From the sequence record SRR16203515_1468: a stretch of DNA of 47,298 nucleotides. The stretch is one strand, 5' to 3'. Shown here piece after piece: positions 21,562 through 37,695 of this stretch (position 1 is the stretch's first letter; each line of letters opens with the position of its first letter). The translations under genes were made by a program, and so were the position numbers. The notes beneath the pieces were generated by a model. That model worked only from the letters and a program-made list of their open reading frames with translations. It was not told the DNA's origin and made no database searches.

Positions 21562-21604
21562 TATCTAAACTTGCCTTCGTTCTTGCAAGTAAATTAACAG
21601 CCCA

Positions 21605-21778: not shown

Positions 21779-22981
21779 TTGAGCAAAGAAATCCTACTCG
21801 TTGAAGATAACAAAGTCATGCAACTATTGATGACTAACAAACTGTCTTCACGAGGTTACCAAGTAGTCACAGCACTCAACGGTGTTGAGGCGCTCGCTCA
21901 ACTAGAAAAGCACCCTTCTATTCAACTTGTGTTGAGCGACTGGATGATGCCTGAGCTAAACGGTATCGAACTTTGCTTCCATTTAAAATCCCCCGATTAT
22001 GGCCGCTATATTTTCTTTGTCTTATTGTCCGGCCGCGATGATGATGACTCTATCGTTGAGGGAATTAATGCTGGTGCCGATGACTTTGTTGCCAAAGAAA
22101 CCAATATCAATGAGCTCGATGCTAGGTTAAAGGCAGGGTTTAGAACCTTAGAGTTACATAATCAACTGGTCGCCAAAAATATCGAGTTAGACCGCGCTTA
22201 CGCCACCATTCATCAAGACTTAGACTCGGCCAACGCGCTAATTCAGCGCATGTTACCTAGTCAAACCACCTTTCCCGGAGTCGAACTACATTATACCCAT
22301 GTACCCAGTGCGCAAATTGGCGGTGACATGCTAGGTTGCATGCAACTCGATGAAGAGCATGTCGCAGTTTACTTATTTGATGTTGCAGGGCATGGAGTAG
22401 CCTCTGCATTAATGTCTTTTGCCATCCAGCAAAGTATTAGCGCTAACTCAGGTACCCATTCCAATGTAAAACGAAAGAAAGATACCGACCCGTTTTATAT
22501 GCTGAGAGATCCTAGCGAGGTACTTTCTCGCCTCAATCAAAGTTATCTAAGCCAAAACAATAACAACCTATATTTCACCATGGTCTACGCGGTGTTAAAT
22601 ATCCGTAACGGCACCTTAAGCTACGCCAGTGCCGGTCATCCTCCGATGATTTGGTTGCAAACCAACAAGCAATCCTCGCAGTTTATTGAACAAGACAGCT
22701 TTGTCGCTGGCATGTTTGATTTTGCCAGTTACAAAACAGAGCAGGTGCAACTTAATCACGGCGATCGCCTATTTCTATATTCAGATGGCATAACTGAAGC
22801 CGAATCGGCCAGTAAACAACAATACTCAGAGCTCGGCCTTAAACAACTAGTACAAGAGCTCGCTCACAAGCCTGCAAATGCGCAAACCGAAACCATAGTT
22901 AATATTGTAAAAAACTGGTGTGGCATTGAACAATTTGACGACGACATCAGCTTGTTAACCTTTGAATGGAAAGGTAATTAA
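21779..22981 (+). CDS. Response regulator with PP2C (SpoIIE/RsbU-type) phosphatase output
   Basis: TTG start with GGAGG; REC domain (VEDN, SDWMMP); PP2C motifs GGD, DVAGHG, YSDGITE, DDISL. Confidence 0.9.
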   Translation: MSKEILLVEDNKVMQLLMTNKLSSRGYQVVTALNGVEALAQLEKHPSIQLVLSDWMMPELNGIELCFHLKSPDYGRYIFFVLLSGRDDDDSIVEGINAGADDFVAKETNINELDARLKAGFRTLELHNQLVAKNIELDRAYATIHQDLDSANALIQRMLPSQTTFPGVELHYTHVPSAQIGGDMLGCMQLDEEHVAVYLFDVAGHGVASALMSFAIQQSISANSGTHSNVKRKKDTDPFYMLRDPSEVLSRLNQSYLSQNNNNLYFTMVYAVLNIRNGTLSYASAGHPPMIWLQTNKQSSQFIEQDSFVAGMFDFASYKTEQVQLNHGDRLFLYSDGITEAESASKQQYSELGLKQLVQELAHKPANAQTETIVNIVKNWCGIEQFDDDISLLTFEWKGN

Positions 22982-22994
22982 AAGAGGAAATATT

Positions 22995-23327
22995 ATGCAA
23001 TTCGAAATAATTGAGAAAGGCCAATATACAGTCATTCAGGTCAATGAAGCTCGATTTGATGCCAAACTTGCCCCCTCTTTTCGAGAGGAGCTTGAAAGTA
23101 TCAAAGGCAATATACGCGACCATTTAGTCCTCGACCTAGGTGGAGTGCGCTTTATGGATAGCAGTGGGCTTGGTGCCGTGATGGGGGCGTATAAAATGCT
23201 ACGCAATACTAAGATCAGTATAGTTAATCCACAAAAACCTATTGTCGATCTCCTCAAGCTCACCCGTATGGATAAGCTAATTCTCAGCCACCCAACAATT
23301 GAAGCAGCAGTCGCAGCAACCGCTTAA
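22995..23327 (+). CDS. STAS-domain anti-sigma-factor antagonist (RsbV/SpoIIAA-like)
   Basis: ATG at 22995 with GAGG; LDLGGVRFMDSSGLG containing the phosphorylatable Ser. Confidence 0.9.
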   Translation: MQFEIIEKGQYTVIQVNEARFDAKLAPSFREELESIKGNIRDHLVLDLGGVRFMDSSGLGAVMGAYKMLRNTKISIVNPQKPIVDLLKLTRMDKLILSHPTIEAAVAATA

Positions 23328-23343
23328 TACAGAGGTAAATATA

Positions 23344-24537
23344 ATGAAAGGGATGATCCTCGCCGCAGGGAAAGGCACACGAATAAAACCTATCTCTTAT
23401 GCGATTCCAAAACCTATGATTCCTATCCTAGGCAAACCAGTGATGGAATCAATGATCCAACTATTTGCTAAGCATGGTATTGATAAGGTTGTTATCAATA
23501 CTAGTCACTTAGCTGAAGTCATTGAAAACTACTTTGGTGATGGCCACCATTTCAATGTACAGCTTTCCTATTCTTATGAAGCCAAAGAGGTTAACGGTAA
23601 ATTTATTAGCCAAGCCCTAGGAAGCGCTGGCGGGATGAGGAAGATCCAAGATTTTTCCGGTTTTTTTGACGAAACATTTGTCGTAGTGTGTGGTGATGCG
23701 TGGATAGATCTGGATCTAAAACAAGCCATTGAACACCATAAAAAACATGGTGGACTCGCCACTATTATTACCCGCGAAGTCGACCCATCGGAAGTCAGTA
23801 AATACGGCGTAGTCGTCACCGACAAATTTAATCAAGTGACCAGCTTTCAAGAAAAGCCTGCTGCAGAAGAAGCACTATCTAACAACATCAATACAGGAAT
23901 TTATATCTTTGAGCCGGCAATTTTTGATTTTATACCCAAGAACATTGAATTTGATATAGGTAGCGACCTATTCCCTTTGCTCGTAGAAAGACAGGCCAAC
24001 TTCTACGCGATAAAAATGGACTTCCAATGGCTCGATGTTGGTAAGGTAAAAGATATTTGGGAAGTTACCAGCGACATACTTAATGGCAAGGTAAAGGGAT
24101 ACCCGATCCCCGGCACTCAAGTTTCTCCTGGTGTTTGGGTCGGTATTAATACCCGAGTTGATATCAGTCAATGCAAAATCACTCCACCAGTACTCATCAG
24201 TAGCGGCTCTGAAGTTCAAGATGGTGCCACCATTATAGGCCCAGCCGTTATTGGCGCTAACTGTAAAGTTGAAAGTAAGAGTTTGGTTAGTAACACCCTC
24301 ATTTGTGATTATATTCACTTAGCTGACGACGCCTATATTGTGAATAAAACCATGTTTGGCGATTACCTATTAGGCCATGATGGCTACACCCAAAAGTTAG
24401 CCGAGTGCCAATACGTCAATATTCTTAAAAACCGTAATGTCTCTAGGCCATTACTCGCAAAATCAAATATCGAAGACGCTGAAAATCGACCGCTAAACTC
24501 AACGAGCTCTTCGGCACTTTTGCAGCAAGTCAAATAG
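23344..24537 (+). CDS. Sugar-phosphate nucleotidyltransferase, CugP-like (probable UDP-glucose pyrophosphorylase; often auto-annotated as mannose-1-P guanylyltransferase)
   Basis: MILAAGKGTR.KP...IPKPMIPI, LGSAGG..KIQDFSGFFDETFVVVCGDA, FQEKP, INTGIYIFEP, C-terminal left-handed beta-helix repeats. Confidence 0.8.
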   Translation: MKGMILAAGKGTRIKPISYAIPKPMIPILGKPVMESMIQLFAKHGIDKVVINTSHLAEVIENYFGDGHHFNVQLSYSYEAKEVNGKFISQALGSAGGMRKIQDFSGFFDETFVVVCGDAWIDLDLKQAIEHHKKHGGLATIITREVDPSEVSKYGVVVTDKFNQVTSFQEKPAAEEALSNNINTGIYIFEPAIFDFIPKNIEFDIGSDLFPLLVERQANFYAIKMDFQWLDVGKVKDIWEVTSDILNGKVKGYPIPGTQVSPGVWVGINTRVDISQCKITPPVLISSGSEVQDGATIIGPAVIGANCKVESKSLVSNTLICDYIHLADDAYIVNKTMFGDYLLGHDGYTQKLAECQYVNILKNRNVSRPLLAKSNIEDAENRPLNSTSSSALLQQVK

Positions 24538-24547
24538 GAATTTTTCA

Positions 24548-24991
24548 GTGAATACAAGGACGTTTCACAAACAATATACCAGCAGTTTAGAAGCCTCGCG
24601 CCTTGTGGCTGATGATCTAGTGCCTTTTTGGCAACAACTTAATGTAGATCTCAGCGTTATTGGCCAAATGGAGCTTTGCCTAGTTGAAGTTGTTAATAAC
24701 GTCTTTGAGCATGCTTACGGCAATACTGAAGGGCCACTATTCGACATAAGCTCATATCTCAATCACAAGCAGCAACTCACCATTGAGATCTCTGACTATG
24801 GCAGCGCCATGCCTAAACATATTCTCGAGAACTTGCCTACAGCAGAGTTTGTTGAGCCAGTAGCTGATGATCCAACAACTTGGCTGCAAAGCAGTAGAGG
24901 CTTGAAGATCGTACAAGAGTTAACTGACACCATAGAGTACACATCAACAGATAAACGCAACACATTCAAACTCTTAAAAGAAGCAGGTTAG
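24548..24991 (+). CDS. Anti-sigma-factor Ser/Thr kinase (RsbW/SpoIIAB-like HATPase)
   Basis: ELCLVEVVNNVFEHAY N-box, ISDYG G1, SRGLKIV G2-like; GTG start. Confidence 0.85.
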   Translation: MNTRTFHKQYTSSLEASRLVADDLVPFWQQLNVDLSVIGQMELCLVEVVNNVFEHAYGNTEGPLFDISSYLNHKQQLTIEISDYGSAMPKHILENLPTAEFVEPVADDPTTWLQSSRGLKIVQELTDTIEYTSTDKRNTFKLLKEAG

Positions 24992-25061
24992 AGCTGGATT
25001 GATGCCTTTAGCCCTGCTAGCTGATGGCTAAGCTAACAGTACGTATACGGAGAATAGCTAG

Positions 25062-26918
25062 ATGGATTTTTACTTCAACGAGTTTGAAAAGCGTAAGCCA
25101 CCGCAAGCAACGCCTTATAGCCTGCCGAGAGAGCTGCTTTATCAATACCTAGCAACCTGCAATATCTGCCTCGGACTGTGGTATCTCATATGGCGCTGGG
25201 GCTTTGCTCTAAACTATGACGCTATGTGGTTTTCACTGCCGCTAGCCTTTGCCGAGTCATGTGCATTTATCGGTACCATCTTATTTACTTTTAATCTTTG
25301 GAAAACCAAAGACGAGCCACAACAAAGCCCACCAAGCTCAATCAATCAATGTATTAAAGAGCCAATGGATGACAGACCTGTAAGTGTCGATATTCTATTT
25401 CCCACTTATGATGAAGAGCCAGAGCTTGTTGCTTTGAGCATTAAAGATGCCCTCAAAGTAACCTACCCACACGATATTGAAATCCGCATTTTCATTCTCG
25501 ACGACGGGAAAAGACCAGAGATGGCGCAACTGGCAGCCGATCTCAATGTTGAATACATTACTCGAGACAGCAATATTGGCTATAAGGCAGGTAACCTTAG
25601 GAACGCTTTAGAACAAACTTATGGCGACTTTATTGTGATCTGCGATGCCGATACTCGGCCCTTCCCCAACATACTGACTAATACCCTAGGTTATTTTAAA
25701 GATCCCGATGTTGCCTGGGTACAAACACCACAATGGTTCTTTGATCTCCCAGCTGGTGAGCGTTTACCTTTATGGCTCAAGCGTCGCCTAGGAACACCAT
25801 TTGGCTGGCTCGGCAGTGCTTTTGAAAAACTCTATGGCCCGGTCACATTAGGCAAAGACCCATTCGCCAATGACCCACAAATGTTTTACGACGTCATTCA
25901 ACGCAGGCGTAATTGGGCCAATGCATCATTTTGCTGCGGCGCCGGCTCGATTCATCGCCGTGAAGCAGTCATGGAGGCAGCGCTGCGTAGCTATAGTCAG
26001 CAAATTAGCCAAGAGCATGACGCGGTAGAAAAACAAATTCGCAAGCTGACTAAAGAAAAGCAAGTCGATAGCAGTATCTCCAGTAACCTACGCCAGGAGA
26101 TCATCTTTGATACTGAGTTTACGCCCTACAAATTCCATGTCTCTGAAGACATTTATACCTCGCTTATCCTACATGGCGACACTGAACGTCAATGGCGTTC
26201 CATCCAGCACCCACAGATAGAAAGCAAAATGCTCTCGCCGCAAGATTTACAAAGCTGGACCGTGCAAAGATTTAAATATTCTGGCGGCTCTATCGATATC
26301 TTTATGAACGATAACCCTTTATTTAAAAAAGGCATGAGCCTCAAACAGAAGTTTATGTATGGAGCAAGCTTCTGGTCTAACTTATCGGCTATTTGGAATA
26401 TCATTTTCCTCGCCTGCCCCATTGTTTACTTTCTCACAAGCATCGCGCCTGTTAGTGCTTACGACACCGCTTTCTATTTGCACTTTTTACCCTTTGTCAT
26501 TACTGCTGAACTGGCCATGATGGTCGGAACCTGGGGCATTGCAGGGTATCAAGGTAAAACCAACTTTTTATCGTTTTTCCCTGTCAATTTAAAAGCTTTA
26601 TGGACGGTATTACGCGGCAAGAAAATCAGCTTTCCTACCACACCGAAAAATCGACAACAGGGACGTTTTTTACACTTAGTGATCCCACAGATTGCCGTCC
26701 TAGCATTAAGTGCTGCCAGCATGGGATTTGCCTGGTATGCCTATAGCGCACAGCTATTTGGTAACTACTCTCTCGGCGGCTTAATTTTAAATAGTTTTTG
26801 GGCCCTAAATAACATGATGGCGATGTGGGGAATGATCGCCGCAGCTTGCTGGTCGCCACCAGCGTCAAATGAACCCAGCCAAGTAAACGTAGAGGAGTTA
26901 AATTATGGAATCGACTAG
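25062..26918 (+). CDS. Processive membrane GT2 glycosyltransferase, cellulose synthase-like, lacking PilZ
   Basis: 2 N-terminal TM; PTYDE, DDG, KAGN, DAD, QTPQ, FCCGAG, SED, QRFKY; several C-terminal TM. Confidence 0.85.
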   Translation: MDFYFNEFEKRKPPQATPYSLPRELLYQYLATCNICLGLWYLIWRWGFALNYDAMWFSLPLAFAESCAFIGTILFTFNLWKTKDEPQQSPPSSINQCIKEPMDDRPVSVDILFPTYDEEPELVALSIKDALKVTYPHDIEIRIFILDDGKRPEMAQLAADLNVEYITRDSNIGYKAGNLRNALEQTYGDFIVICDADTRPFPNILTNTLGYFKDPDVAWVQTPQWFFDLPAGERLPLWLKRRLGTPFGWLGSAFEKLYGPVTLGKDPFANDPQMFYDVIQRRRNWANASFCCGAGSIHRREAVMEAALRSYSQQISQEHDAVEKQIRKLTKEKQVDSSISSNLRQEIIFDTEFTPYKFHVSEDIYTSLILHGDTERQWRSIQHPQIESKMLSPQDLQSWTVQRFKYSGGSIDIFMNDNPLFKKGMSLKQKFMYGASFWSNLSAIWNIIFLACPIVYFLTSIAPVSAYDTAFYLHFLPFVITAELAMMVGTWGIAGYQGKTNFLSFFPVNLKALWTVLRGKKISFPTTPKNRQQGRFLHLVIPQIAVLALSAASMGFAWYAYSAQLFGNYSLGGLILNSFWALNNMMAMWGMIAAACWSPPASNEPSQVNVEELNYGID

Positions 26919-28230
26919 CTCATGGGTTAAAGCGCGCCACCACATTGTTTTTTTAGCCGGCCTTTTTACCGCTTTAGTCATTGCATTTACGATTGAAACC
27001 CGCGAATACAATCAAGTGTTGGGTAACCTATCGTTTACCCCAAGCGAGCCAATTCCATTTCGAGAAAGCCGAGTATTAACCGATGAGGAATATCAATGGG
27101 CCAATATTGCATGGCAGTATTTTGAAAATAACTACCAAGACAACACCGGCTTAGTTAATTCTGTTGACGGTTACCCATCGACAACCATGTGGGATACGGC
27201 TTCATATTTAATGGCCTTAATTTCAGCCCATAGGCTTAATGTCATAGGCTTTGAGGAATTTAGCCTTAAAACTGAAAAAGCCCTTAATTCACTCGCGCGC
27301 CTACCATTAGTAAGAGACGAACTCCCTAATAAAGCCTACAACACTCAAACATTGGCCATGGTTGACTACGACAATACCCCAGTAGAAGGCGGCATCGGCT
27401 GGTCGGCGATTGATATTGGCCGAATATTGGTGCCGATGAATATTTTAATCTGGCAGTACCCGCAATTTAATCGCCAAGTAAATGCGGTATTAGAACATTG
27501 GCAAATTACCGCGATGACCATAGATGGATACATGTATGGCTCGAGGCTCTCCGCTAGCAACACAATAGAGCTGGTGCAGGAGGGGCGTATCGGCTATGAA
27601 GAATATGCTTCTAAAGCATTGAGTTTAATGGGGCGCGATGTATTTAACGCCCTTAAATATGCTGACTATTTAAAACTTATCAACATTAACGGTGTAGATA
27701 TTCCAACCGATAGCCGCGATCCTGCCAAGTATCATGCTCATAACTATGTTGTGAGTGAATCTTATATTCTCGACAGCATAGAATTTGGCGGTGACAGTAT
27801 CTCTAAGGTATTTGCCTATCGTGTTTATAAAGCGCAAGAAGCGCGCTTTCAACAAAAAGGTATTCTTACCGCTGTAAGCGAAGACCACATAGACCAAGCC
27901 CCGTATTTTGTTTACAACACAGTGTTTTCAGATGGCAAAAAGTGGAACTCAATTACCGATACAGGCGAAGATGCTTCTGCTTATAAAACCCTTTCAACCA
28001 AAGCAGCCTTTGGCTGGTACTCGCTATACGACACCCCTTATGCAACCAAGTTAATCAACGGCGTCAACCAACTTAACTCCGACTCCGAAGGTTGGTATTC
28101 AGGCTTATATGAAAGCAATGGTGAAATAAATAAAACACTTACAGCAAACACCAACGGCATTGTTTTAGAGTCACTCGCCTATATCCAGAGTGGTTCTTTA
28201 CTCAATATTGGTGTTGACGCTCAACAATAA
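26905..28230 (+). CDS. DUF3131 family protein, paralogue 1 (N-terminal membrane anchor)
   Basis: AWQYFENN...TGLVNSVDGYPSTTMWD, ELPNKAYNT, GWSAIDIGR, QEGRIGYEEYA, TANTNGIVLE. Confidence 0.8.
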   Translation: MESTSSWVKARHHIVFLAGLFTALVIAFTIETREYNQVLGNLSFTPSEPIPFRESRVLTDEEYQWANIAWQYFENNYQDNTGLVNSVDGYPSTTMWDTASYLMALISAHRLNVIGFEEFSLKTEKALNSLARLPLVRDELPNKAYNTQTLAMVDYDNTPVEGGIGWSAIDIGRILVPMNILIWQYPQFNRQVNAVLEHWQITAMTIDGYMYGSRLSASNTIELVQEGRIGYEEYASKALSLMGRDVFNALKYADYLKLININGVDIPTDSRDPAKYHAHNYVVSESYILDSIEFGGDSISKVFAYRVYKAQEARFQQKGILTAVSEDHIDQAPYFVYNTVFSDGKKWNSITDTGEDASAYKTLSTKAAFGWYSLYDTPYATKLINGVNQLNSDSEGWYSGLYESNGEINKTLTANTNGIVLESLAYIQSGSLLNIGVDAQQ

Positions 28231-28240
28231 AGGGGACTGT

Positions 28241-29635
28241 ATGCGCTTAGTACCACTATTATGCTTAACATGTGCCCTGACGGCTTGCGGCAATAGCTAT
28301 CAAGGCTTTTCAAATGACATAGTCAAACGACATAACCACTGGGATACACCTGAACCGCGCTCAGGAGATCTCACCGAAAAAGAACTGGAAATGGCAACCA
28401 TTGCCTGGAAGTACTTTGAAAATAACTATCAAGAATCCACAGGGCTGGTTAATGCGGTAAATAACTATCCATCGGTTACCTGGTGGGATGCATCATCTTA
28501 CTTAGCTGGCATGGTAAGCGCATTAGAGTTTGGCATCATTAAGCGCGAAGAGTTTGATCGCCGCTTTACCAAGTTTATCACCACTCTCAACACCATAGAT
28601 CTGTTTATGGGTGAGCTGCCCAACAAAGCCTACAACACACAGAATGCAGCAAAAGTAGATTACGCTAACCAGCCTGGTGAGATTGGCTATTCTGCTTTAG
28701 ATCTTGGGAGACTGCTTATCTGGCTGCACATCATTAAACATCGTTTTCCACAATATGCCAGTGCTATCGACTCAGCAGTTTTACGCTGGAACTTTTGCAA
28801 TGTTGTTGATGAAAACGGCACCATGTTTGGCGCGCTTCTAGAACCTGGCAAGCCAGTTCAGTACTTACAAGAAGGCCGCTTAGGCTATGAAGAATACGCA
28901 GCCAAAGGATTCGAATTGTGGGGGTTTAATGCCGATCAGGCATTGATGCCTGAGCCTTACGCAACAATCAATATGTACGGCTATGATATCCCTTACGACA
29001 CACGAGATCCCCGCAAACTCAAAGCTCATAGTTATGTAGTGACAGAAAGCTATGTTTTAGATGGTATTGAACTTGGCTGGGACGTTACGAGTGATAGAAC
29101 TGCTCACGATGACGATTATAGCCACGACTGGGTCGCTGATTTTGCGCTGCAAATCTATCGAGTTCAAGAAAAGCGTTATCACGAGACCGGCATTATTACC
29201 GCTCGTACTGAGCATCAATTAGCAGGCGCGCCCTACTTTGTTTACGACACCATTTATACCGACGGTTTTGCTTGGAATACCATTTCAGAAGCCGGAGAGT
29301 TCTTACCCCAATATGCGGCGGTAGCGATTAAAGGCGCCATGGGTATGTGGGTATTATGGGATACTGAGTATACCGATTTGCTGTTTGAGCATGTGAGTAA
29401 TGTTTACGACCGAGAGAAAGGCTTTTACGAAGGTATTTATGAAAATGGCACAGGCTTAATCAATACTTTCACCTCAAACAATAACGGCATTTTACTAGAG
29501 ATCTTACTCTACAAAAAACAAGGCAAGCTACTGCAATATCAAGATAAAACAGCACCAAGCCTTTGGGACAAAGCGCTCAATAATCCTTTTGAATATCAAA
29601 ACCAATGCTTACCTAAACAGTTAGCATCGCAATAA
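28241..29635 (+). CDS. DUF3131 family lipoprotein, paralogue 2
   Basis: ATG at 28241 after AGGGG; lipobox LTAC; same motifs (AWKYFENN, GYSALDLGR, QEGRLGYEEYA). Confidence 0.8.
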   Translation: MRLVPLLCLTCALTACGNSYQGFSNDIVKRHNHWDTPEPRSGDLTEKELEMATIAWKYFENNYQESTGLVNAVNNYPSVTWWDASSYLAGMVSALEFGIIKREEFDRRFTKFITTLNTIDLFMGELPNKAYNTQNAAKVDYANQPGEIGYSALDLGRLLIWLHIIKHRFPQYASAIDSAVLRWNFCNVVDENGTMFGALLEPGKPVQYLQEGRLGYEEYAAKGFELWGFNADQALMPEPYATINMYGYDIPYDTRDPRKLKAHSYVVTESYVLDGIELGWDVTSDRTAHDDDYSHDWVADFALQIYRVQEKRYHETGIITARTEHQLAGAPYFVYDTIYTDGFAWNTISEAGEFLPQYAAVAIKGAMGMWVLWDTEYTDLLFEHVSNVYDREKGFYEGIYENGTGLINTFTSNNNGILLEILLYKKQGKLLQYQDKTAPSLWDKALNNPFEYQNQCLPKQLASQ

Positions 29636-29643
29636 GGCCTTCT

Positions 29644-31026
29644 ATGCACAGATATGGTGCGCTAGCGCTAATCGTTGTTTGTCTACAAGGCTGTGGTCTT
29701 ATCTATCAAGGGGTGCAGTCAGGCGTTTCAGGGGTGAATCAGTCACAACTGCTTCGCCAAGGGCGCCATGGGGAGCTCAACGAGCAAGAGCTTGTGTGGG
29801 CCAATACTGCATGGCGTTATTTCAGCAATAATACCCAACTCGCTACCGGACTCGTTAATTCTATTGATAATTATCCAACTATGGATATGACCTCATTAGC
29901 AGACTATTTGATTGCATTGCAGGCCGCTAAACAGTTCGAGCTGATTTCATCACGAGAGCACGATGAGCGGCTCACCATGGTGATCGATTTTTTGGCAAAC
30001 ATGCCGCTCACTCGCCAAGGTGTGCCCAATAAAGTTTATTCCACCAGCAATAGAGGCATGGTCGATTATGCCAATCAAAGTGCAGAACTTGGTTGGTCAG
30101 CCATCGATATTGGTCGCTTACTTATTTCGCTGGCGATAACCAAACAGAATAATCCCCAATTTGCCGAATACATAGATAAAGGCGTACTGAGATGGAATTT
30201 TTGTAGCCTTGTTTCTGAACAAGGTGAGCTATACGGCGGTAATATTTCTGGGGGCCAAGTTCACCCATACAAAGAGGGACGACTGGGTATAGAAGAGTAT
30301 GCATCTTATGGCTATTTAGATTGGGGGATTATTCCCCATAGAAATATAAGCCTCGAACCCTATGAAGTGATTACTATCAATGGCATTGATCTACTCTTTG
30401 ATGGCAGAGATCCACGCTTTACCGATGTGCTGAGACCTGTTTTTAGTACACCCTACCTGTGGCTAGGATTGGAATTTAATTGGGACGATATCGATGATCT
30501 CAGTTCATCCGATGCTTCTCATAGCAATGATGGCTTAGCCGCAATGGCCGACTCTATTTATTTAGTGCAGCAAAGCCGATGGCAGCAAGAACGTATTTAT
30601 ACCGCCAGAGGTGAGCACGTTGTCTCGGGTGAGCCTTACTTTGTTTACGATGCAATTTACGCACTTGGCACTCCTTGGATAACGGTAGCTGAAGATGGCA
30701 GTAGCCATGATCAGTTGGCATTAGTTTCAACCCGAGTCGCATTTCAAATGTGGGCTCTTTGGAAAACTGACTACACCGAAAAACTACTCACCTTAGTGCA
30801 AGAGATGTATCACCCTCAGCGCGGCTGGTATGAAGGGCGCTATGAACGCTCTAGTGCCTATGAAAAAAGCATTACCTTAAAAACTAATGCTGGAGTATTG
30901 GAAGCCTTGCTCTATAAACAGGTAGGTAAGTTGTACCAGCCAAATAGCGACAAGCAATATCGTGACGTTCGCTTTAACTCGCGCTTTAATCATCCCGGAA
31001 AATGCCTAACGGAGACCTTCAAATGA
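29644..31026 (+). CDS. DUF3131 family lipoprotein, paralogue 3
   Basis: Lipobox LQGC; AWRYFSNN, GWSAIDIGR, KEGRLGIEEYA. Confidence 0.8.
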   Translation: MHRYGALALIVVCLQGCGLIYQGVQSGVSGVNQSQLLRQGRHGELNEQELVWANTAWRYFSNNTQLATGLVNSIDNYPTMDMTSLADYLIALQAAKQFELISSREHDERLTMVIDFLANMPLTRQGVPNKVYSTSNRGMVDYANQSAELGWSAIDIGRLLISLAITKQNNPQFAEYIDKGVLRWNFCSLVSEQGELYGGNISGGQVHPYKEGRLGIEEYASYGYLDWGIIPHRNISLEPYEVITINGIDLLFDGRDPRFTDVLRPVFSTPYLWLGLEFNWDDIDDLSSSDASHSNDGLAAMADSIYLVQQSRWQQERIYTARGEHVVSGEPYFVYDAIYALGTPWITVAEDGSSHDQLALVSTRVAFQMWALWKTDYTEKLLTLVQEMYHPQRGWYEGRYERSSAYEKSITLKTNAGVLEALLYKQVGKLYQPNSDKQYRDVRFNSRFNHPGKCLTETFK

Positions 31027-31961
31027 GTAAACGTTATCGCTGGGCAATTACGCTAGTGAGTCTTAGTCTGCTCATTAGCCTTGCAGCCTATGCGCTGCCA
31101 CAGCCACTTTCTCTTAAACCCTTTAGTAAAGGCAATTACCTCGTTAAAAAAGGCGCCTACGATCAAGCGGCTACACATTGGCATCAGCTCAGTATTCAAT
31201 TTATGGGTAATTCACAAAACCTTTCTCCACAGCAAATGTGGCAAGGCGCCGGTCTCGCGGCCTCTCTAGCAGCCATTGCCGCCGATAAAGCTCAAGATCC
31301 AATAGCCTATCAATACTGGGCTGATAGTACCCGCTATTTACTCACAGGTGGAACAAACTGGTCGCAGTTACAACAGCAATTACATCAACGTTTTGAAACA
31401 GCTAACACCCAACTGTCAGTCGCGATGCAAGTGAATGACATTAATGCTGGTATAGATGCGTCACTGGATCTGGAGCTTAGCGTATTACAAGTATGGGATG
31501 ACAAATTAGCCGTTTTTGAATTTATGTCTCCGCGACTTGGACTCAACCGTCTAGAGCAAAATAGCGATATAACGGCTGTAGTTGCTACCCCCTATTCGGC
31601 AGAACAAATCCAGCAAAACGCGCAACACAGTGGTGAGAAAAAACTATCAGGGCTCCAAACTAATGTATCGCAGACACCTGCTTTTACCATTGCGCCAGTT
31701 TTAGCAGAAGACACGCTTACAAAATCTGTCGAGCAAGAAAATTTACCGCAACAACAAACAGAACAAGTTAACTCATCTGCGACAGAAATATCAGCTGCTG
31801 CACAACAAAGTCCAATGGCTAAAGGAAATCTGTTACCAACACAAAACCCTCAAGTTGAAGCAAAACAAAAACGCCAAATTGAGCCTATCCCATCTCAGCC
31901 AGAATCACAGCCAGCGAAAACAGACCAGCAAGAAAAGCCCTCAGAGAAAAACCGGAACTAA
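31023..31961 (+). CDS. Exported helical (TPR-like) protein with Q/E/P-rich C-terminal tail
   Basis: ATGA overlap with the previous stop; signal peptide; Ala-rich helices then a low-complexity tail. Confidence 0.6.
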   Translation: MSKRYRWAITLVSLSLLISLAAYALPQPLSLKPFSKGNYLVKKGAYDQAATHWHQLSIQFMGNSQNLSPQQMWQGAGLAASLAAIAADKAQDPIAYQYWADSTRYLLTGGTNWSQLQQQLHQRFETANTQLSVAMQVNDINAGIDASLDLELSVLQVWDDKLAVFEFMSPRLGLNRLEQNSDITAVVATPYSAEQIQQNAQHSGEKKLSGLQTNVSQTPAFTIAPVLAEDTLTKSVEQENLPQQQTEQVNSSATEISAAAQQSPMAKGNLLPTQNPQVEAKQKRQIEPIPSQPESQPAKTDQQEKPSEKNRN

Positions 31962-32104
31962 AAGCAATTTACACAAGACAAATCGCCTAGAAACTTGCTG
32001 TTTTTTAAATCTATTACTAGCCTAATAGGTAACGGCTAGATTCTATTTCTAAATAGTTTTGCCGCCGTTTAACAGGAAGAGCAGCACCATAGAAAGGACT
32101 CGTT

Positions 32105-33382
32105 ATGATGACCCCCAGAGAAGATCTAGAGCAACTTTACCGCGCGGCAAGCAACCAGTTTGACCTAACCGAAGCTTCTCACCAAGAGGCGCTGCTAGAA
32201 TTAGCAGACTCTTTACTCGATCTGCAACGAACTCCGCCAGAGCAGCTGATTTTGCTATCGCAAAAAGAGGACTGCCCGCTAGCCTTTCGTCTTGCAGTTA
32301 AGCTTGTGCTTTCAAGACAATATGCCGAACAAATTAAACAACCAATCACAGTGGGTGTCGTCTTTGCTATGTGGGGAGAACACCATAGATTATTGGGTAA
32401 ATCCAGCAACAACCCTAACGGTGAAAACTCATTGCTAACCAAAGTCAATCAATTAGATTGGATCTGCCGCGACACCCCCATCGACTGGCGCTTATATCCA
32501 GTTGACGATGGCTGCCCTCACGCAAGTTTCGATATCGCTACTCGGATAGCCGAAAACTCGGTCCAAAGCGCTAAAATTCAGGTACTAAAACTCAGCGATG
32601 GCATTAAGCTTGAGCACGGCCCTTTGGCAAACCTGCAGCATGTTGATGACTCCAAAAAAGGCGGCGCGATTATTCACGGCTGTGTAAAAGCCTTAGAAGA
32701 CAATGTCGATGCAGTGCTATATACCGATGCGGATAACTCAGTGCATATGGGGCAATTAGGCCTAATACTGCAGCCCTTTATTGAGCAACATGCACAAGTC
32801 GTACTGGGCAACCGAAAACATCCAATGTCAGTGTTGGTAAAACAAGAACAACGCTGGGGAGTAGGGATCAAGACTCTGCGCCATATGCAAAGAATGGTCG
32901 GTTCGAGTATCTTCTCTAAAGGCATTCACGATACACAAGCGGCCTATAAACTGTTTAGCCGTGAAGCACTTTTTTGCATTTTAGCTAAACCAAGCGTATT
33001 TGATTTTTCATTCGATACTGATTGGATTCTAGCGGCTATGCAGCACAACCTAAAAATAGATACTATCCCCTTTGCTTTTGTTGATTCAGCAGCTGAATCA
33101 GCCTCTATCACTCAAGGGCCCATGAGTACTTGGTTAACCTTGTTACAGGGGCTCGTTACCGCCCTAAGAGCTAGAAATATTTATTACAGTAAAGAGATGG
33201 CACAAGTGATTGATGAGCATGTTAGAACTGCTGAAGATCTTGAATTAATCAGAGATACGCTACCCGATGAATTACTGGATGCCAAAGACTGCGAGCTTGG
33301 CAATGAGGCCTTAATGACCCCACTGGCATTATCCACTTGGTTAGCCAAGGTCAAAGCGGCGCCATTTGAGTCCAGCTTATAA
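32105..33382 (+). CDS. Soluble GT2 glycosyltransferase, Alg5/Dpm1 (polyprenyl-phosphate glycosyltransferase)-like
   Basis: VDDGC, KGGAI, YTDAD, GNR, DTQAAYKLF, FSFDTD. Confidence 0.75.
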   Translation: MMTPREDLEQLYRAASNQFDLTEASHQEALLELADSLLDLQRTPPEQLILLSQKEDCPLAFRLAVKLVLSRQYAEQIKQPITVGVVFAMWGEHHRLLGKSSNNPNGENSLLTKVNQLDWICRDTPIDWRLYPVDDGCPHASFDIATRIAENSVQSAKIQVLKLSDGIKLEHGPLANLQHVDDSKKGGAIIHGCVKALEDNVDAVLYTDADNSVHMGQLGLILQPFIEQHAQVVLGNRKHPMSVLVKQEQRWGVGIKTLRHMQRMVGSSIFSKGIHDTQAAYKLFSREALFCILAKPSVFDFSFDTDWILAAMQHNLKIDTIPFAFVDSAAESASITQGPMSTWLTLLQGLVTALRARNIYYSKEMAQVIDEHVRTAEDLELIRDTLPDELLDAKDCELGNEALMTPLALSTWLAKVKAAPFESSL

Positions 33383-33425
33383 CCTCAACAAATACATTGG
33401 ATGTAGCCAAGCAAGGAAGCGAGTG

Positions 33426-33752
33426 ATGATAAAAATTGAAGAACTTAAGGCAATATGCGGTGATGATGACTCTATGGTGGAAATGCTGCTGAACCTATAC
33501 ATGGAAGAATATGGTCAATGCGATAGTGTCATTCAACAAAGGTACACGAGTGACGATCTCGATGGTTTGTTCAAAATATCCCATGAATTAAAAGGTATGT
33601 TTAGCAATCTCTGTGCGCAAGATGCTATGACTTTAGCCCAAATCGTAGAGTCTAGCTCACAAGCAGGTACATTACCGGAAGAGAGCGCCATCAAAGATCT
33701 ATGCCAAGAAATTCGTGCAATTAATCAGCAAATCAACACTATATTAGCCTAA
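33426..33752 (+). CDS. Stand-alone Hpt phosphotransfer protein
   Basis: FKISHELKGMFSNL His motif; AAGGA RBS before GTG/ATG at 33423/33426. Confidence 0.85.
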   Translation: MIKIEELKAICGDDDSMVEMLLNLYMEEYGQCDSVIQQRYTSDDLDGLFKISHELKGMFSNLCAQDAMTLAQIVESSSQAGTLPEESAIKDLCQEIRAINQQINTILA

Positions 33753-33771
33753 GTAATGATTCAGTGATGGC

Positions 33772-35253
33772 ATGCCCACAACTCACCACTCAAGCTATTA
33801 TTTCTTGGTTTTCCTGTTCGCGGCACTATTAAATACTTGTGCCGCGGCTTCAGGTTCTGAGTTGCCAGCCCAACCACAAACCATTTCACGTAATTTACAA
33901 CATGCAAAAGACTCACCTCCAGTAATCATCCACTTTCAACGCCGAGCGGTGATCCCGAAGGTTAGTCATGACTCAGAATTAGTCATTCAAGCAGTTCAAA
34001 CTAATCAGACTAAACAAGCATCCACGAAAATTTCCCCAACAGTTGCCGAGCTAACCCCAGCTAAGCACACAGCCGTTATTGAGTTAACTCGCCATGAAAA
34101 ATTACTCATCAATAAAGCCAAACGCTATTTTGATAGAAACTGGAATGCAACGACAGGTTTGATTGATTCAGTACAAGGCTACACTCACGCAACCATGTGG
34201 GATGTCGCTAGTGGTATCGGCGGATTATTAGCGCTTGAAGCACTATCTGAAAACTCGCAACAACTCACGGAATTCAGGCTCGAAAAAATGCTCGATACGC
34301 TACTCGAGTTGCCGCTATACAAAGCGACCTTACCCAATAGACAATATAATACTCGTACAGCTCAGCCCTCAGGCAGAATGAGTCAAACAGCTGCTAATGG
34401 TAATGGCTGGTCTGCACTAGACTTAGGCAGGCTGTATATTTGGCTGGAAATACTCAAGCGCCACAAACCTTTTCTGGCCAATAAAATACACCAACTCAAA
34501 TCTAAGTGGTTGCTTGAGCGTGCTACTCACAAGGGCAACTTATACGGCACTAAGCTGACCTCTAAAAAAGAATACTTTCGCCAAGAAGGCCGTTTAGGCT
34601 ATTTACAATATGCTGCAACCGGCTACCAACTTGCGGGCCTAAATGTTGCTACCGCTTTTGAATGTGACAAACTCGAAACCACTGAATTGGATGGTATTAA
34701 GCTGCTTATTGATAAAGGCAATTTACCCTTTTTCACTTTAGACCCTTACCTACTCTACGCCATAGAAATAGGCTATGAGGAATCATGCTGGAATCAGCTT
34801 TTATCTCTATATCAATTGCATAAACAAAATGCGCAAACGACTAGCAAACTCTCAGCCTACGCTGAAGACTCGTTAAACAAAGCACCTTGGTTTTTATACA
34901 ACAATATCACTTACCAAGGTAAGCCTTGGCAAAGTGTATCTCACTCAGGCAAAGCTGTTAGTTACCCACAAACCTTTAGCAATAAAGCGGCATTTGCTAT
35001 GAGCGTTCTTTTTGATGAAGCCTATAGCCAACAGCTTGCCGATCTCGTTATTAGTAATAGCGCTCGTCATAACGTTATCCCAACTGGCCTTTATGCCAAC
35101 GGTAAAACAAATACCGCCTATAATATAAATACTAACTCACTGATCTTAGTCAGTCTTTGGTATAAATCTCGCGCCCAGCGGGCAATTCTCCCCTCCTTGG
35201 GGCAACGAGAGACTAAACAAGAAACTACGGCTATATCAGCCATAAACCATTAA
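33772..35253 (+). CDS. DUF3131 family exported protein, paralogue 4 (divergent)
   Basis: Signal peptide; YFDRNWNATTGLIDSV, TMWD, LPNRQYNT, GWSALDLGR, QEGRLGYLQYA, NINTNSLIL. Confidence 0.75.
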   Translation: MPTTHHSSYYFLVFLFAALLNTCAAASGSELPAQPQTISRNLQHAKDSPPVIIHFQRRAVIPKVSHDSELVIQAVQTNQTKQASTKISPTVAELTPAKHTAVIELTRHEKLLINKAKRYFDRNWNATTGLIDSVQGYTHATMWDVASGIGGLLALEALSENSQQLTEFRLEKMLDTLLELPLYKATLPNRQYNTRTAQPSGRMSQTAANGNGWSALDLGRLYIWLEILKRHKPFLANKIHQLKSKWLLERATHKGNLYGTKLTSKKEYFRQEGRLGYLQYAATGYQLAGLNVATAFECDKLETTELDGIKLLIDKGNLPFFTLDPYLLYAIEIGYEESCWNQLLSLYQLHKQNAQTTSKLSAYAEDSLNKAPWFLYNNITYQGKPWQSVSHSGKAVSYPQTFSNKAAFAMSVLFDEAYSQQLADLVISNSARHNVIPTGLYANGKTNTAYNINTNSLILVSLWYKSRAQRAILPSLGQRETKQETTAISAINH

Positions 35254-35354
35254 AAAATAATATGGCGGTAGCAGCCACAATCACTGCAAGATACACAGTA
35301 TATAATCATTTATAGGGAGCGCAGGCAGCAAGCGCATTCAGGCAAGGAAGCAGA

Positions 35355-36374
35355 TTGACTCAACGTTTAATGTGGAAAAACAGTAGCAATACTAAAGTTG
35401 TTACCTTGCTAGGTATCAGTTCTCTGCTCACATTTTCGAGCAGCGCCGCTGAGCACCAAACTCAAATGGCTAAACATGCTCCTAAGAGTAATCCTGCAGC
35501 CATTATCAATGCGCCTCCAACACCTACCACAGATAATCCAAGTGAGAGCGAAGCTGAGCTAGTTTGGAAAGGGATAAGTAGTTCGTTTATGCTGCCTATC
35601 GAAGAGTGGGATGCTGATATACCTTGGTACAAGCGTTGGAGTGCTAGCATCAACCTAGGCTATCCGTTAGTAGACACGCCGGCAGTATTACCCGCAAACT
35701 CGACCACTGGACCAAGTAATCAAAACTTCACCGCTAGCCTGTCATTAAAATATGCCATCATAGGTAATTGGTTTGTTTCAGCCACCGCTTATCACTATTT
35801 TGATAAAGATCTGCAGCAAGCGTGGAACCCGGACTTTACCTATGTGTTTGGTTATAGCGACTGGCGACCATATACATTTAGCCTGCTCTACTCAAATTAC
35901 GGTGGTAACCGCTTCAACCCAAGCGATGGGGTTAAGCGCACAGAGTTCTCGCAAGGAACTTGGTCATTAGGTTGGAAGTTTCCTGTGACTAAACCCTTTA
36001 TTGACTGGCTATCGTTTACTGATGATGGCGCTATTGGCTGCCAAATTGATTATAACTACACGCCTGAGTATTTCGATTTAGAAAGTGTTGAATATAAAAC
36101 GCAACATCAAACCGTTAGTTTAGGTTGTAAGTATTCCATTGTCGGGAATTGGTATGTCAACGCAACGGCATTTTATTATTTAGATAGTACGCAGAAACAG
36201 CCCTGGAACCCCGACTTTACTTATGGCTTTGGCTACTTTGACTGGCGCCCAGGCACGATTACTGTGCAATACAATAACTACTCAGGTAATCGCTGGAATA
36301 GTGCAGATAGAGGACCTGATACCGGCCGCTTTAAAGATGGCTCCATCAGCATTAGTTACTCATTCAAGTTCTAA
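35355..36374 (+). CDS. Outer-membrane beta-barrel-like protein with internal two-fold duplication
   Basis: Signal peptide; two repeats KY.I.GNW.V.ATA..Y.D...Q..WNPDFTY.FGY.DWRP.T....Y.NY.GNR; C-terminal SYSFKF. Confidence 0.7.
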   Translation: MTQRLMWKNSSNTKVVTLLGISSLLTFSSSAAEHQTQMAKHAPKSNPAAIINAPPTPTTDNPSESEAELVWKGISSSFMLPIEEWDADIPWYKRWSASINLGYPLVDTPAVLPANSTTGPSNQNFTASLSLKYAIIGNWFVSATAYHYFDKDLQQAWNPDFTYVFGYSDWRPYTFSLLYSNYGGNRFNPSDGVKRTEFSQGTWSLGWKFPVTKPFIDWLSFTDDGAIGCQIDYNYTPEYFDLESVEYKTQHQTVSLGCKYSIVGNWYVNATAFYYLDSTQKQPWNPDFTYGFGYFDWRPGTITVQYNNYSGNRWNSADRGPDTGRFKDGSISISYSFKF

Positions 36375-36401
36375 CACTCCACTCGCTAGCAATCTAGATT
36401 A

Positions 36402-36659
36402 TCATTTCAAACGATTAAATATCTTTTGCTGGCAGTGAGGACAAAAATAAGAATGCCGATGGATCTTAGCGTGGCACTCTGGACAAGGAAGCTTTCGGCG
36501 GTCTTTACTGAATAAAAGTAATAACACGCCAATTGGTCCCAATACATAACCTAATAGCGCCCCTGCTACAACATTGCCCTTGCTATAACCAATAACGGTT
36601 GAGAGCACTAGCATTGCCAAGTAAAAAACTAGCCAAAATAGAATGTTATCCATAATCAA
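36402..36659 (-). CDS. Small membrane protein with C-terminal zinc ribbon
   Basis: Two TM segments then CPEC...CPHC. Confidence 0.7.
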   Translation of the reverse strand: MIMDNILFWLVFYLAMLVLSTVIGYSKGNVVAGALLGYVLGPIGVLLLLFSKDRRKLPCPECHAKIHRHSYFCPHCQQKIFNRLK

Positions 36660-37693
36660 AATACAAAATTGATGCTGAGGGTCACTAAATCAACATCTGA
36701 GCTTTCATCGTATTCAAGGGGCGATGTAATAAATTGCCCCCGATTTCCCTCCTCGCTGGAGAAGACCATTTGGTACTCTAAATTTAACGAAATGGTGGAT
36801 GTCGCATCGTATCTAACGCCCGCAGTTACCCCTTTACTCTTGCGGGACTGATGACTTTCGGCGTAGGTTAAATAAGGAGAGAAATCATCAAAGGTATAGA
36901 TCATAGAGGCATACCAATTAGCTTGAATACGATCAACCTCAACCTCTGCCATCCATAACCATGACTCATAACTGTATTCCGCACCTAAGGTGTAAATATC
37001 AAGTTTTTCAGTTACAGGAAAGGGGCGTTGAGTATATTTAACTTGCATATAGCCACTGTGAACTCGGTAATTGAAGCCAACTAAGTCCACATACATTCCG
37101 GCCATATATTCGGTATCAAACTCTAACTTTAGATTACCTAAATCCACTTCATTTAAGCGTTCAAATCCATAATAAGGTGACACGGTTAGCTGCAAACCAT
37201 CAGATAACTCGTAGTTCCAGGCGAGTGATAAACCATCGTATGAAGTGAAGCCCAAAATACTGTCATAAACTTCTTGTGGCGGGCGAGCCCAAGGATAAGC
37301 TTGTCCCACATAATAGTACTCAGAGGCCAAAAATAGTGGCAACCTCAATCGCCCTGCTCTTACCTCAAACTCGTTGTGCTCATAAGATAAGTAAGCCCAT
37401 TCAAGCTCAGGATCGCTCCATTTATCTTGAGTGCGTTTAACCACTTGGCCAGAGGCCGCAAAACCATCAAAAATATCCACATCTAACTGCAAACCAAAAA
37501 CCGTATCGCAGTCATAACAAGCTTCATCAGTAATTTCGCGACTAATGAATAATGGCATGCGATTGTCAGTTTTACTGATTGCAGTAGAGCCAAAACCACT
37601 TAGGTTAATATTATCGGTGAGCTCAATAGCAGCCATTGCAGGGCTAAGCAGCAACATAGGTAAAGCAAAAGCGGCAATTCGACGAAATAACAT
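36656..37693 (-). CDS. Porin-like outer-membrane protein
   Basis: Signal peptide; LSGFGS, LEWAYLSY, AGRLRLPLFLASEYYYVG.AYPWARPPQEVY; ends NFVF. Confidence 0.75.
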   Translation of the reverse strand: MLFRRIAAFALPMLLLSPAMAAIELTDNINLSGFGSTAISKTDNRMPLFISREITDEACYDCDTVFGLQLDVDIFDGFAASGQVVKRTQDKWSDPELEWAYLSYEHNEFEVRAGRLRLPLFLASEYYYVGQAYPWARPPQEVYDSILGFTSYDGLSLAWNYELSDGLQLTVSPYYGFERLNEVDLGNLKLEFDTEYMAGMYVDLVGFNYRVHSGYMQVKYTQRPFPVTEKLDIYTLGAEYSYESWLWMAEVEVDRIQANWYASMIYTFDDFSPYLTYAESHQSRKSKGVTAGVRYDATSTISLNLEYQMVFSSEEGNRGQFITSPLEYDESSDVDLVTLSINFVF

Positions 37694-37695
37694 GG

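Follow-up and report, generated by a model that had tools for sequence, protein, structure and literature searches.

Four paralogous proteins of the DUF3131 family (PF11329), here called D1 to D4, are encoded in an accessory locus of ~19 kb (21779–40947) within a Shewanella DNA stretch of 47,298 nucleotides, sequence record SRR16203515_1468, which we refer to as the window. Judged by its sequence profile and by one structural model, DUF3131 is a further family of the SGL clan of beta-1,2-glucanase-type enzymes, nearest to GH189 and outside every named family. The copies differ in how they are anchored in the cell envelope and in residues that are fixed within each orthologue group. On balance we lean towards a locus that makes and tailors an envelope beta-glucan, with the four barrels dividing the processing of the chain among them.

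Family, targeting and fold of the four copies

The first-pass annotation of the window had described four DUF3131 paralogues on the plus strand that share motifs and differ in anchors and acidic residues. All four match PF11329 almost end to end, with 475.4, 413.9, 329.5 and 295.2 bits for D1 to D4 against a gathering cut-off of 20.3 bits and with alignments spanning positions 1–366, 1–367, 2–367 and 5–366 of the 367 in the model; chance is excluded. Each protein is stand-alone, the four are 441–493 residues long, and D2, D3 and D4 share 41, 35 and 30 % identity with D1. Every position of the shared motifs is identical in all four proteins (in D1 numbering, used throughout, Y72, F73, N76, T81, G82 and L83; S167, A168, D170, G172 and R173; E226, G227, R228 and G230), and the variable acidic strings are likewise as first described, with GYEEY at 230–234, SESY at 284–287 and SED at 325–327. 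For D2, the ATG at 28241 appears preferable as start to a longer GTG open reading frame (ORF) beginning at 28190: it lies behind a Shine-Dalgarno-like AAAGGGG stretch, and the N-terminus then opens directly with a lipoprotein signal. The family is large, with 1,270 representative clusters at 50 % identity matching at E <=0.001, and a cluster look-up of ten DUF3131 representatives returned no description beyond 'hypothetical protein', given for 7 members of the P0153 cluster.

Targeting was assigned from hydropathy, from lipobox patterns and from their conservation in 44 related loci compared with 10-kb flanks, to which whole-genome searches were added. D1 has a single hydrophobic segment at about residues 10–33 and no lipobox; D2 and D3 carry the lipoboxes LTAC (Cys16) and LQGC (Cys17). 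The signal peptide of D4 contains a cysteine, Cys23, which is not conserved (Gly in one related locus, L006, and no matching Cys in L007–L009), and for this reason D4 is not classed as a lipoprotein. Orthologues of D1 show almost no variation in the anchor and its flanks, the anchor being kept in every full-length N-terminus listed (41 of 42); the lipobox is kept in every listed D2 N-terminus and in every full-length listed D3 N-terminus, and D4 N-termini vary freely. One transmembrane anchor, two lipoproteins and one signal peptide, as originally assigned, are thus upheld on all three counts. In Shewanella sp. DAU334 the D4 ORF reaches 632 residues, its linker containing tandem Pro/Ser/Thr-rich repeats (PLSS.TSNSTPRT..K).

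The same types recur in distant representatives. Among 31 D1-like proteins, 27 have a hydrophobic N-terminal segment without lipobox, one has a lipobox and three have a weaker segment, and a motif resembling GL..AR.H..F..GL was seen by eye in about half of them. A lipobox is present in 2 of 7 D2-like and in 11 of 14 D3-like representatives, followed in the latter by G and a short conserved stretch; all 5 D4-like representatives have a signal peptide and a linker of 110–160 residues. On this pattern, the anchor type is an old, clade-specific trait.

D1, the one copy modelled, was predicted with AlphaFold2 from an 87-sequence alignment (predicted local distance difference test score (pLDDT) 95.1, predicted template modelling score 0.91). 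The model consists of a long N-terminal helix (residues 4–39) and an (alpha/alpha)6 barrel of paired helices (58–438). In VIA-align comparisons, the cyclisation domain of the cyclic glucan synthase TiCGS (8WY1, GH189) ranked first, with Z 35.8 and a root-mean-square deviation of 2.8 over 347 residues, followed by Cgs (8RF9, Z 32.0), GH144 (31.3–32.0), XcSGL (30.3), GH194 (28.5), GH192 (28.3) and GH162 (24.4); the best other (alpha/alpha)6 barrel reached Z 21.8. Three structural-genomics entries described as 'putative glucoamylase' and unassayed (4QT9, 4GL3 and 3EU8) we take to be GH144. In Foldseek, all 17 matches listed to rank 20 are beta-1,2-glucanases or Cgs (E 3e-10 to 1e-06). The profile of the 87 DUF3131 sequences matches 8WY1 at E 4e-05 over residues 61–154, the only family that it matched; phmmer with the single D1 sequence against PDB sequences gave nothing at E <=0.01, and PF10091 (Glycoamylase) had no match at E <=0.01 in any of the four copies. 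The first-pass annotation had proposed superposition on GH144, GH162, GH189 and newer beta-1,2-glucanase structures; the structural comparison made for D1 and the profile match support a link to families of this type.

Putative catalytic positions and divergence

The SGL clan is described in PMC12102758 by a general-acid Glu together with a conserved Phe and a conserved Tyr (F286 and Y367 in XcSGL). The general acid is E239 in XcSGL, E211 in CpSGL and E1356 in TiCGS. By construct numbering and the printed alignment, the account of TiCGS places the acid/base E1356 in LLASEAR, E1400 in MFEY, the nucleophile E1442 in WGISES, and H1536 and H1537 in AHHQGM. Because of the insert in GH189, a direct full-length hhalign of the DUF3131 and GH189 profiles is confident only for D1 residues ~54–180, up to the S..D.G motif. 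Proteins that may bridge the gap are found in three loci of other gammaproteobacteria (L050 1054–3084, L051 1289–3346 and L052 1098–3248). These are ~700-residue proteins with a DUF3131-like N-terminal half and a PF10091 C-terminal half (1e-18 to 1e-23); they match 8WY1 at 5.6e-43, have no GH189 insert and carry Pro at the nucleophile position (WGLSPSS). They are possibly GH193-like and appear useful as intermediates between the families.

Aligned with these three proteins, the DUF3131 profile gives a probability of 96.9 and E 1.6e-10 through residue 231, and places QEGRIGY (E226, R228) on their tEaRLGS, which in turn aligns with LLASEARQAS of TiCGS (E1356) and with NESRLAA of EeSGL1. By this sequence alignment, the general acid of the clan corresponds to E226 of the shared EGR.G motif. 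The variable acids had been proposed as candidate catalytic residues; since the only confident profile alignment puts the general acid at E226, which all four copies keep, the acids of GYEEY, SESY and SED are second-tier positions. The suggestion that the fourth paralogue may be inactive is likewise not supported: it retains E226 and its barrel is under strong purifying selection, and as no copy has lost the clan-defining acid, none can be called dead. A mapping of the general acid by eye to E232 of GYEEY was rejected in favour of the intermediate-based alignment. In hhalign, E232 and E233 lie opposite hydrophobic residues of the relatives and are family-specific, the Leu of D4 resembling the outgroup state. 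In the D1 model, E232/E233 and E285 stand at the N-terminal ends of helices 231–241 and 285–294; in six-hairpin enzymes, the pocket lies on the side of the helix N-terminal ends.

For the C-terminal half, three low-confidence alignments share a recurrent path that sets TAVSED on WGISES, SES near MFEY and TANTNG on AHHQGM. E326 is, tentatively, a nucleophile candidate on this path; position 326 is Glu in 74 and Asp in 11 of the 87 sequences, and positions 415–417 are N in 72, T in 80 and N in 86. Y287 (Tyr in 57, Phe in 22 of 87) is a candidate for the clan Phe, in a region where the alignments are not significant. D170 is conserved at the motif where GH144, GH192 and GH194 have their proposed base, a correspondence that spacing only would suggest. 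All four copies keep E226, D170 and a Glu at the tentative nucleophile position, so all four could be catalytic.

A tree was built from 106 rows, comprising the 87 aligned sequences and the orthologues from six loci, other orthologues being omitted as redundant (IQ-TREE quick search, LG+G4, SH-aLRT support only). D1 falls in a large clade with the family-consensus residues, D2 and D3 form neighbouring subclades of a 35-row clade (support 100), and D4 belongs to a clade of 7 rows (support 100), all of them with L232, Q233 and D285. The orthologues repeat this division. Those of D1 (n=41) show the consensus throughout, and those of D2 (n=42) have D327H and T416N fixed, with H327 in 42/42. In D3 (n=43), W96 is replaced by S, T or N, D97 by G, S or N and N415 by K or Q, alongside K366R and D327H; position 285 is changed from E to T in 42 of 43 and to S in the other, and position 326 has E in 36 orthologues and D in the other 7. 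In D4 (n=13), E232L, E233Q and E285D are fixed, with L232 in 13/13. E226, R228 and D170 are kept in all 139 orthologues (41/41, 42/42, 43/43 and 13/13).

Identity across genera is 77–82 % for D2, the best conserved of the four, 67–73 % for D1 and 66–72 % for D3. Ratios of non-synonymous to synonymous substitution (dN/dS), calculated by Nei-Gojobori for four pairwise comparisons per copy, are 0.023, 0.006, 0.035 and 0.028 for D1, 0.029, 0.013, 0.014 and 0.025 for D2, and 0.027, 0.013, 0.046 and 0.062 for D3. Values for D4 are 0.479 (a comparison with only 20 non-synonymous and 12 synonymous differences), 0.099, 0.119 and 0.079. Calculated separately, the D4 barrel has 0.094 and 0.038 and the first 110 residues have 0.63 and 0.82; the gene is thus not decaying but encodes a constrained protein whose linker is free. 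The sequences support the view that the four copies are not recent duplicates, in a pattern that would be expected of stable subfunctionalisation, and the old, fixed changes in D3 (six positions) and D4 (three) point to altered specificity, a shifted balance between hydrolysis and transfer, or binding roles. Of the subfunctionalisation originally proposed, the separation therefore stands, in old clades, clade-specific anchors, fixed substitutions and purifying selection; the particular roles of hydrolase, transferase and binder are not assignable from sequence.

The locus, its synthase and its distribution

The locus is 99 % identical to that of Shewanella sp. 1CM18E, and the D1 protein is 99 % identical to one database cluster. 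From 21779 to 36374, all genes are on the plus strand, and they overlap or are spaced by 8–19 bases except at two gaps of ~100–140 bases (Table 1). A promoter and terminator scan of 20600–38400 found sites no commoner than in shuffled sequence (20 versus 35.8 and 18 versus 17.3).

Table 1. Genes of the accessory locus, in window coordinates
Feature	Position	Strand	Evidence
Response regulator fused to PP2C/SpoIIE phosphatase, putative input arm of a partner-switching module	21779..22981	+	PF00072 6e-22; PF07228 5.3e-42
STAS anti-sigma-factor antagonist	22962..23327	+	TIGR00377 1.3e-15, above cut-off
Sugar-1-phosphate nucleotidyltransferase with left-handed beta-helix tail; presumed donor-sugar supply	23299..24537	+	PF00483 3.7e-55
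RsbW/SpoIIAB-like anti-sigma serine kinase	24548..24991	+	PF13581 4.3e-16
GT2a, BcsA-like membrane GT2 synthase without PilZ domain; QxxRW changed to QRFKY	25062..26918	+	PF00535 7.5e-15
D1, DUF3131 copy 1; N-terminal membrane anchor and (alpha/alpha)6 barrel, full family consensus	26905..28230	+	PF11329 1.5e-142
D2, DUF3131 copy 2; lipoprotein, consensus acids kept	28241..29635	+	PF11329 7.3e-124
D3, DUF3131 copy 3; lipoprotein, remodelled conserved positions	29644..31026	+	PF11329 3.2e-98
unk319, conserved exported or anchored protein of no known family, low-complexity tail; overlaps end of D3	31002..31961	+	
GT2b, second, soluble GT2-like glycosyltransferase	32105..33382	+	PF00535 2.8e-05; no hydrophobic segment
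Hpt phosphotransfer protein	33366..33752	+	PF01627 2.7e-08
D4, DUF3131 copy 4; signal peptide, variable linker of ~110 residues, barrel	33772..35253	+	PF11329 9e-88 over residues 115–467
OMunk, conserved outer-membrane beta-barrel ending in YSFKF, internal duplication	35355..36374	+	No Pfam match
Porin_4-type porin	36656..37693	-	PF13609 1.5e-08
unk162, small exported protein of no known family, hydrophobic N-terminus	37696..38184	-	No Pfam match; conserved with porin
Hybrid sensor histidine kinase	38287..40947	+	HisKA, HATPase_c and Response_reg matches

The synthase GT2a is closest to BcsA (E. coli 7LBY, 1.8e-33; TIGR03030, 3.8e-61, below cut-off). The GT2 core and the membrane helices of the two align, with VSED on VTED, and the QRIRWARG of BcsA falls on QRFKYSGG, so that the QxxRW signature reads QRFKY in GT2a (residues 402–406). 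R403 and F404 do not vary in 35 orthologues, one of them 42 % identical, and conservation at Q402, K405 and Y406 is 90 % or higher. Replacement of Trp by Tyr where the acceptor stacks may influence which linkage is made. In 39 of 40 loci D1 begins before GT2a ends, as it does in a distant genome that has one DUF3131 gene and in Pantoea.

Around the synthase, several genes suggest control of the pathway. The PP2C response regulator has an orthologue in 35 of 44 loci and is missing from 9, including two short ones (L034 and L045); the STAS and RsbW-like genes flank that of the nucleotidyltransferase in 35 of the 44, those in which all three were detected. No sigma-factor gene was found among the 17 products of 21166–40947 in the NCBIfam scan, and the partner switch (PP2C regulator, STAS protein and RsbW-like kinase) may act on the enzyme rather than on transcription. 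The hybrid kinase has hydrophobic segments at residues 6–34 and 286–318 with a periplasmic stretch of ~250 residues between them. On its 3' side, 41104–42000 encodes a product of 298 residues that has about seven hydrophobic segments and belongs to no Pfam family. GT2b is kept in the Shewanella and Vibrionaceae loci. For unk319, found in most of the related loci, there was no Pfam or NCBIfam match and only weak TPR-like leads with scores <0.9.

OMunk is present in 30 loci at >=85 % coverage. Its AlphaFold2 model, of middling confidence (pLDDT 67), has ~12–13 strands, and Foldseek placed OmpG (3.9e-06), NanC, FapF and KdgM at the top. The protein consists of two similar halves, in which NW[FY]V.ATA.[HY]Y.D ... 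WNPDFTY.FGY.DWRP ... YSGNR[FW]N occurs twice. The porin is conserved with the locus, and its orthologue adjoins the kinase in Vibrio fortis. A TonB-dependent receptor gene lies upstream of the locus on the minus strand (17984–20632).

The core gene order is conserved, beside the BcsA-like synthase, in Shewanella, Vibrio, Photobacterium and Aliivibrio. There are exactly four DUF3131 copies in the nearest genome (G001), four in each of the 5 genomes reached via the loci (Photobacterium aphoticum, Vibrio fortis, Aliivibrio, Vibrio nomapromontoriensis and Shewanella sp. DAU334) and four in all 7 strongly positive genomes among 201 sampled in the order, G001 included; an eighth genome gave one weak match, and the genomes reached via loci may duplicate sampled ones. 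From the 10-kb flanks alone, D4 seemed restricted to Shewanella, a notion dropped once whole-genome searches of 4 Vibrionaceae had shown a fourth copy in each, 14–20 kb from the other three. D4 of V. fortis is followed by the genes of the kinase, the small exported protein and the porin; a type I secretion pair and an RTX protein separate these from the outer-membrane barrel and core genes. Three Vibrionaceae loci (L085 7450–14286, L086 4118–12674 and L087 5882–16595) have such an insert between the D4 and outer-membrane barrel genes, consisting of a type I secretion ATP-binding cassette (ABC) protein, an HlyD-type adaptor and an RTX protein of 569–1618 residues. The assignments are Pfam-confirmed in L085 and L086 only and made by size and position in L087; Shewanella lacks the insert.

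The locus is patchy, occurring in the 7 of 201 genomes of the order, in 1 of 12 sampled Shewanella and as 3 strong cases in a class-wide sample of 201. In Pantoea, Salmonella and Klebsiella it is carried on plasmids or islands. The copy number is three in enterobacterial versions, as on plasmid pDSJ10 of Pantoea stewartii and in Klebsiella as far as PMC12974863 describes it; the same account has the Klebsiella version adjoining OpgC, as PMC3401170 does for Salmonella. In table 5 of PMC8371737, swp_2164, swp_2165, swp_2169 and swp_2170 of Shewanella piezotolerans belong to a salt-shock module enriched for 'Protein of unknown function DUF3131'.

The Pantoea version is instructive. In its anchored first copy (L088 8688–10019), D170, E226, R228, E232, E285 and E326 are replaced by G, K, S, R, L and T, and the D2-like second copy keeps the full residue set. 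Having lost these residues, the anchored copy argues that the anchored position has a role for which catalysis is not needed, most simply as a synthase partner; the core enzyme would seem to be of the D2 type. In pDSJ10 the three DUF3131 copies are followed by genes for a globin and a GH2 protein. In another related locus, L007 of Shewanella sairae, identity to the window is mosaic: GT2a, D1, D2 and D3 are 97–99 % identical and the flanks 68–90 % (RsbW-like 69, unk319 71, Hpt 76, D4 68), which suggests that the core block has recently recombined.

Comparison with known systems and proposed role

GH189, as in TiCGS, is the best structural and the only profile match; the two families share the N-terminal half up to and including the S..D.G motif, the acid/base E.R motif as traced through the intermediates and, tentatively, a Glu at the nucleophile position. 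The account in PMC12102758 gives as a GH189 hallmark a long alpha5 and extra helices between alpha4 and alpha5. DUF3131 lacks the corresponding insert of ~170 residues, which hhalign finds only in Cgs (a barrel of residues 58–438 against a 574-residue chain, with 347 of 574 residues aligned), and has no PF10091 match. Moreover, DUF3131 proteins stand alone, are exported and have a BcsA-like GT2 as partner; GH189 occurs as the middle domain within a synthase of 2,800–2,900 residues, together with GT84 and GH94. The GH189 domain of cyclic glucan synthase is cytoplasmic. With the other families of the clan (clan GH-S; GH144, GH162, GH192, GH193 and GH194 in PMC12102758), DUF3131 shares the (alpha/alpha)6 barrel at Z 24–32, the general-acid motif, a size of ~440 residues and export signals. 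It differs from them in that a single sequence finds no match, the C-terminal half is not recognised by PF10091, and its genes stand in a synthase operon, not a utilisation cluster; its acid at the tentative nucleophile position also contrasts with the Pro of the GH189-like, hydrolase-type intermediates.

Cellulose synthesis offers a second parallel. As in BcsA-BcsB-BcsZ, a BcsA-like synthase is followed directly by the gene of a single-pass anchored periplasmic partner, and the operon includes a periplasmic (alpha/alpha)6 glycosidase; BcsZ itself appears in the Foldseek results for the D1 model at E ~5e-05. BcsA is controlled by cyclic di-GMP via its PilZ domain, and the anchor of BcsB is C-terminal. 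The locus, by contrast, is without PilZ, BcsB and BcsC; no PilZ domain was found in GT2a, whose QxxRW is changed; control apparently passes through a phosphorelay and partner switch; and the anchored partner D1 is a glycosidase-fold barrel with an N-terminal anchor. In osmoregulated periplasmic glucan systems, OpgH works with OpgG and OpgD (GH186). The locus resembles these in combining a GT2 membrane synthase with periplasmic glucan-processing proteins, in the OpgC gene beside its enterobacterial versions and in the salt-shock module of S. piezotolerans; OpgG and OpgD have another fold and family (PF04349), and GT2a is only marginally like OpgH (3.4e-05).

We infer substrate, chemistry, partners and regulation as follows. 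The nucleotidyltransferase would supply the sugar donor, and GT2a would polymerise the chain and push it through the inner membrane, after which the four DUF3131 barrels would process it at different stations of the envelope, by hydrolysis or by GH189-like transglycosylation. D1, tethered in the inner membrane and translationally coupled to GT2a, would most likely sit at the synthase. D2, a lipoprotein with the full set of conserved acids and the most conserved copy, is probably the main enzyme; D3, a lipoprotein with altered residues, may have a different subsite specificity or a mainly binding role; and D4 would act as a soluble periplasmic protein with a long variable linker, having lost the family-specific acid E232. 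The pathway is probably turned on and off by the hybrid kinase, the Hpt protein, the PP2C regulator, the STAS protein and the RsbW-like kinase. D4 adjoins Hpt in the window and stands directly upstream of the kinase in V. fortis. A more elaborate version, which we offer as a long shot, would be a new glucan route: a BcsA-like synthase would extrude the chain and the exported barrels would carry out energy-neutral transglycosylation in the periplasm (release, resizing or cyclisation), as GH189 does in the cytoplasm, with D4 (E232L) as a glucan-binding reporter or chaperone linked to the kinase/Hpt/PP2C switch that gates donor supply.

Several observations weigh against the broader proposal of an envelope beta-glucan tailored by four barrels. 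Mapping beyond E226 is weak: C-terminal-half alignments with GH189 gave E 0.31 and 0.42, which is not significant, one further run showed a discordant register (E 0.0095, probability 4 %), and the GH189 His-His pair (H1536, H1537), which lies beside the nucleophile, aligns with Asn-Thr in this low-confidence region. GT2a is much nearer to cellulose synthase than to OpgH (3.8e-61 against 3.4e-05), and the linkage may therefore not be beta-1,2. Every NCBIfam match of the nucleotidyltransferase is below cut-off, the best being mannose-1-phosphate guanylyltransferase (6e-51), so its sugar is uncertain. Gene overlap and anchor conservation are all that suggests binding of D1 to GT2a. OpgG (PF04349) was found in 0/5 and 0/7 locus-bearing genomes, an absence that is uninformative because two of three genera lack OpgG altogether (0/12 and 0/11) and 8 of 12 Shewanella have neither system; replacement of OpgG by the locus, with no overlap between the two, was set aside for the same reason. 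Finally, the literature searched held no functional study of DUF3131 activity, substrate or product, the name occurring in passing only. No study of the locus (cellulose synthase-like with anti-sigma antagonist, Vibrio, glucan) was among the literature matches listed, and the main text of the SGL-clan paper (PMC12102758) has 0 occurrences of 'Pfam' or 'DUF'.

The alternative that fares best, possible if not what we expect, is that the polymer is something other than a beta-1,2-glucan, or even no glucan (cellulose-like, mixed-linkage or mannose-containing) and that DUF3131 differs in specificity from its structural relatives. The nearness of GT2a to BcsA, its altered acceptor-binding QxxRW and the guanylyltransferase-like nucleotidyltransferase fit such a polymer, as do two statements in PMC12102758, that substrate-binding residues vary among SGL-clan families and that a Group 4 protein was inactive on beta-1,2-glucan. 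Against it, the structural neighbours with Z >24 act on beta-1,2-glucan or are unassayed 'putative glucoamylase' entries, and enterobacterial versions (PMC12974863, PMC3401170) carry OpgC, a modifier of periplasmic glucans.

A catabolic locus, in which the DUF3131 proteins break down external beta-1,2-glucan or a similar polymer so that it can be taken up and the synthase-like gene has nothing to do with them, we consider improbable. The characterised stand-alone enzymes of the SGL clan in PMC12102758 are all glucanases, and the locus has two outer-membrane channels, one like oligosaccharide porins, with the TonB-dependent receptor nearby. However, the products scanned (21166–42000) included no sugar ABC or phosphotransferase-system transporter, no phosphorylase and no beta-glucosidase, the conserved core holds the nucleotidyltransferase and the second GT2, the overlap of GT2a with D1 recurs in distant taxa, and D1 is anchored in the inner membrane, not secreted. 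Least credible is that the copies are redundant isoenzymes of one activity whose anchors and acids drifted neutrally: all four do keep D170, E226, R228, D269, E293 and an acid at 326 within one fold family, but they are 30–41 % identical in four deep clades with their own anchor types, their differing residues are fixed (L232 in D4, T285 in 42/43 D3, H327 in D2), no copy is lost from G001, the 5 locus-reached genomes or the 7 positives of 201, and dN/dS is far below 1.

Periplasmic glucans, beta-1,2-glucans among them, are important in osmotic adaptation, symbiosis and infection, and their enzymology has opened only recently with GH144, GH162, GH189 and GH192–194. DUF3131 appears to add one more family to the clan, a large and exported one that is wired to a cellulose-synthase-like enzyme and not to Cgs or OpgH synthases. 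New here are the distribution of anchors over four stations and the age of that pattern, the D4 class, the placing of the general acid in a shared motif and the contrast offered by Pantoea. The four-copy form is a natural experiment, with one fold at four envelope stations and defined residue swaps, in which hydrolysis, transfer and binding can be tested against one another. As the locus is accessory, patchy and carried on plasmids and islands, it may be a portable envelope trait.

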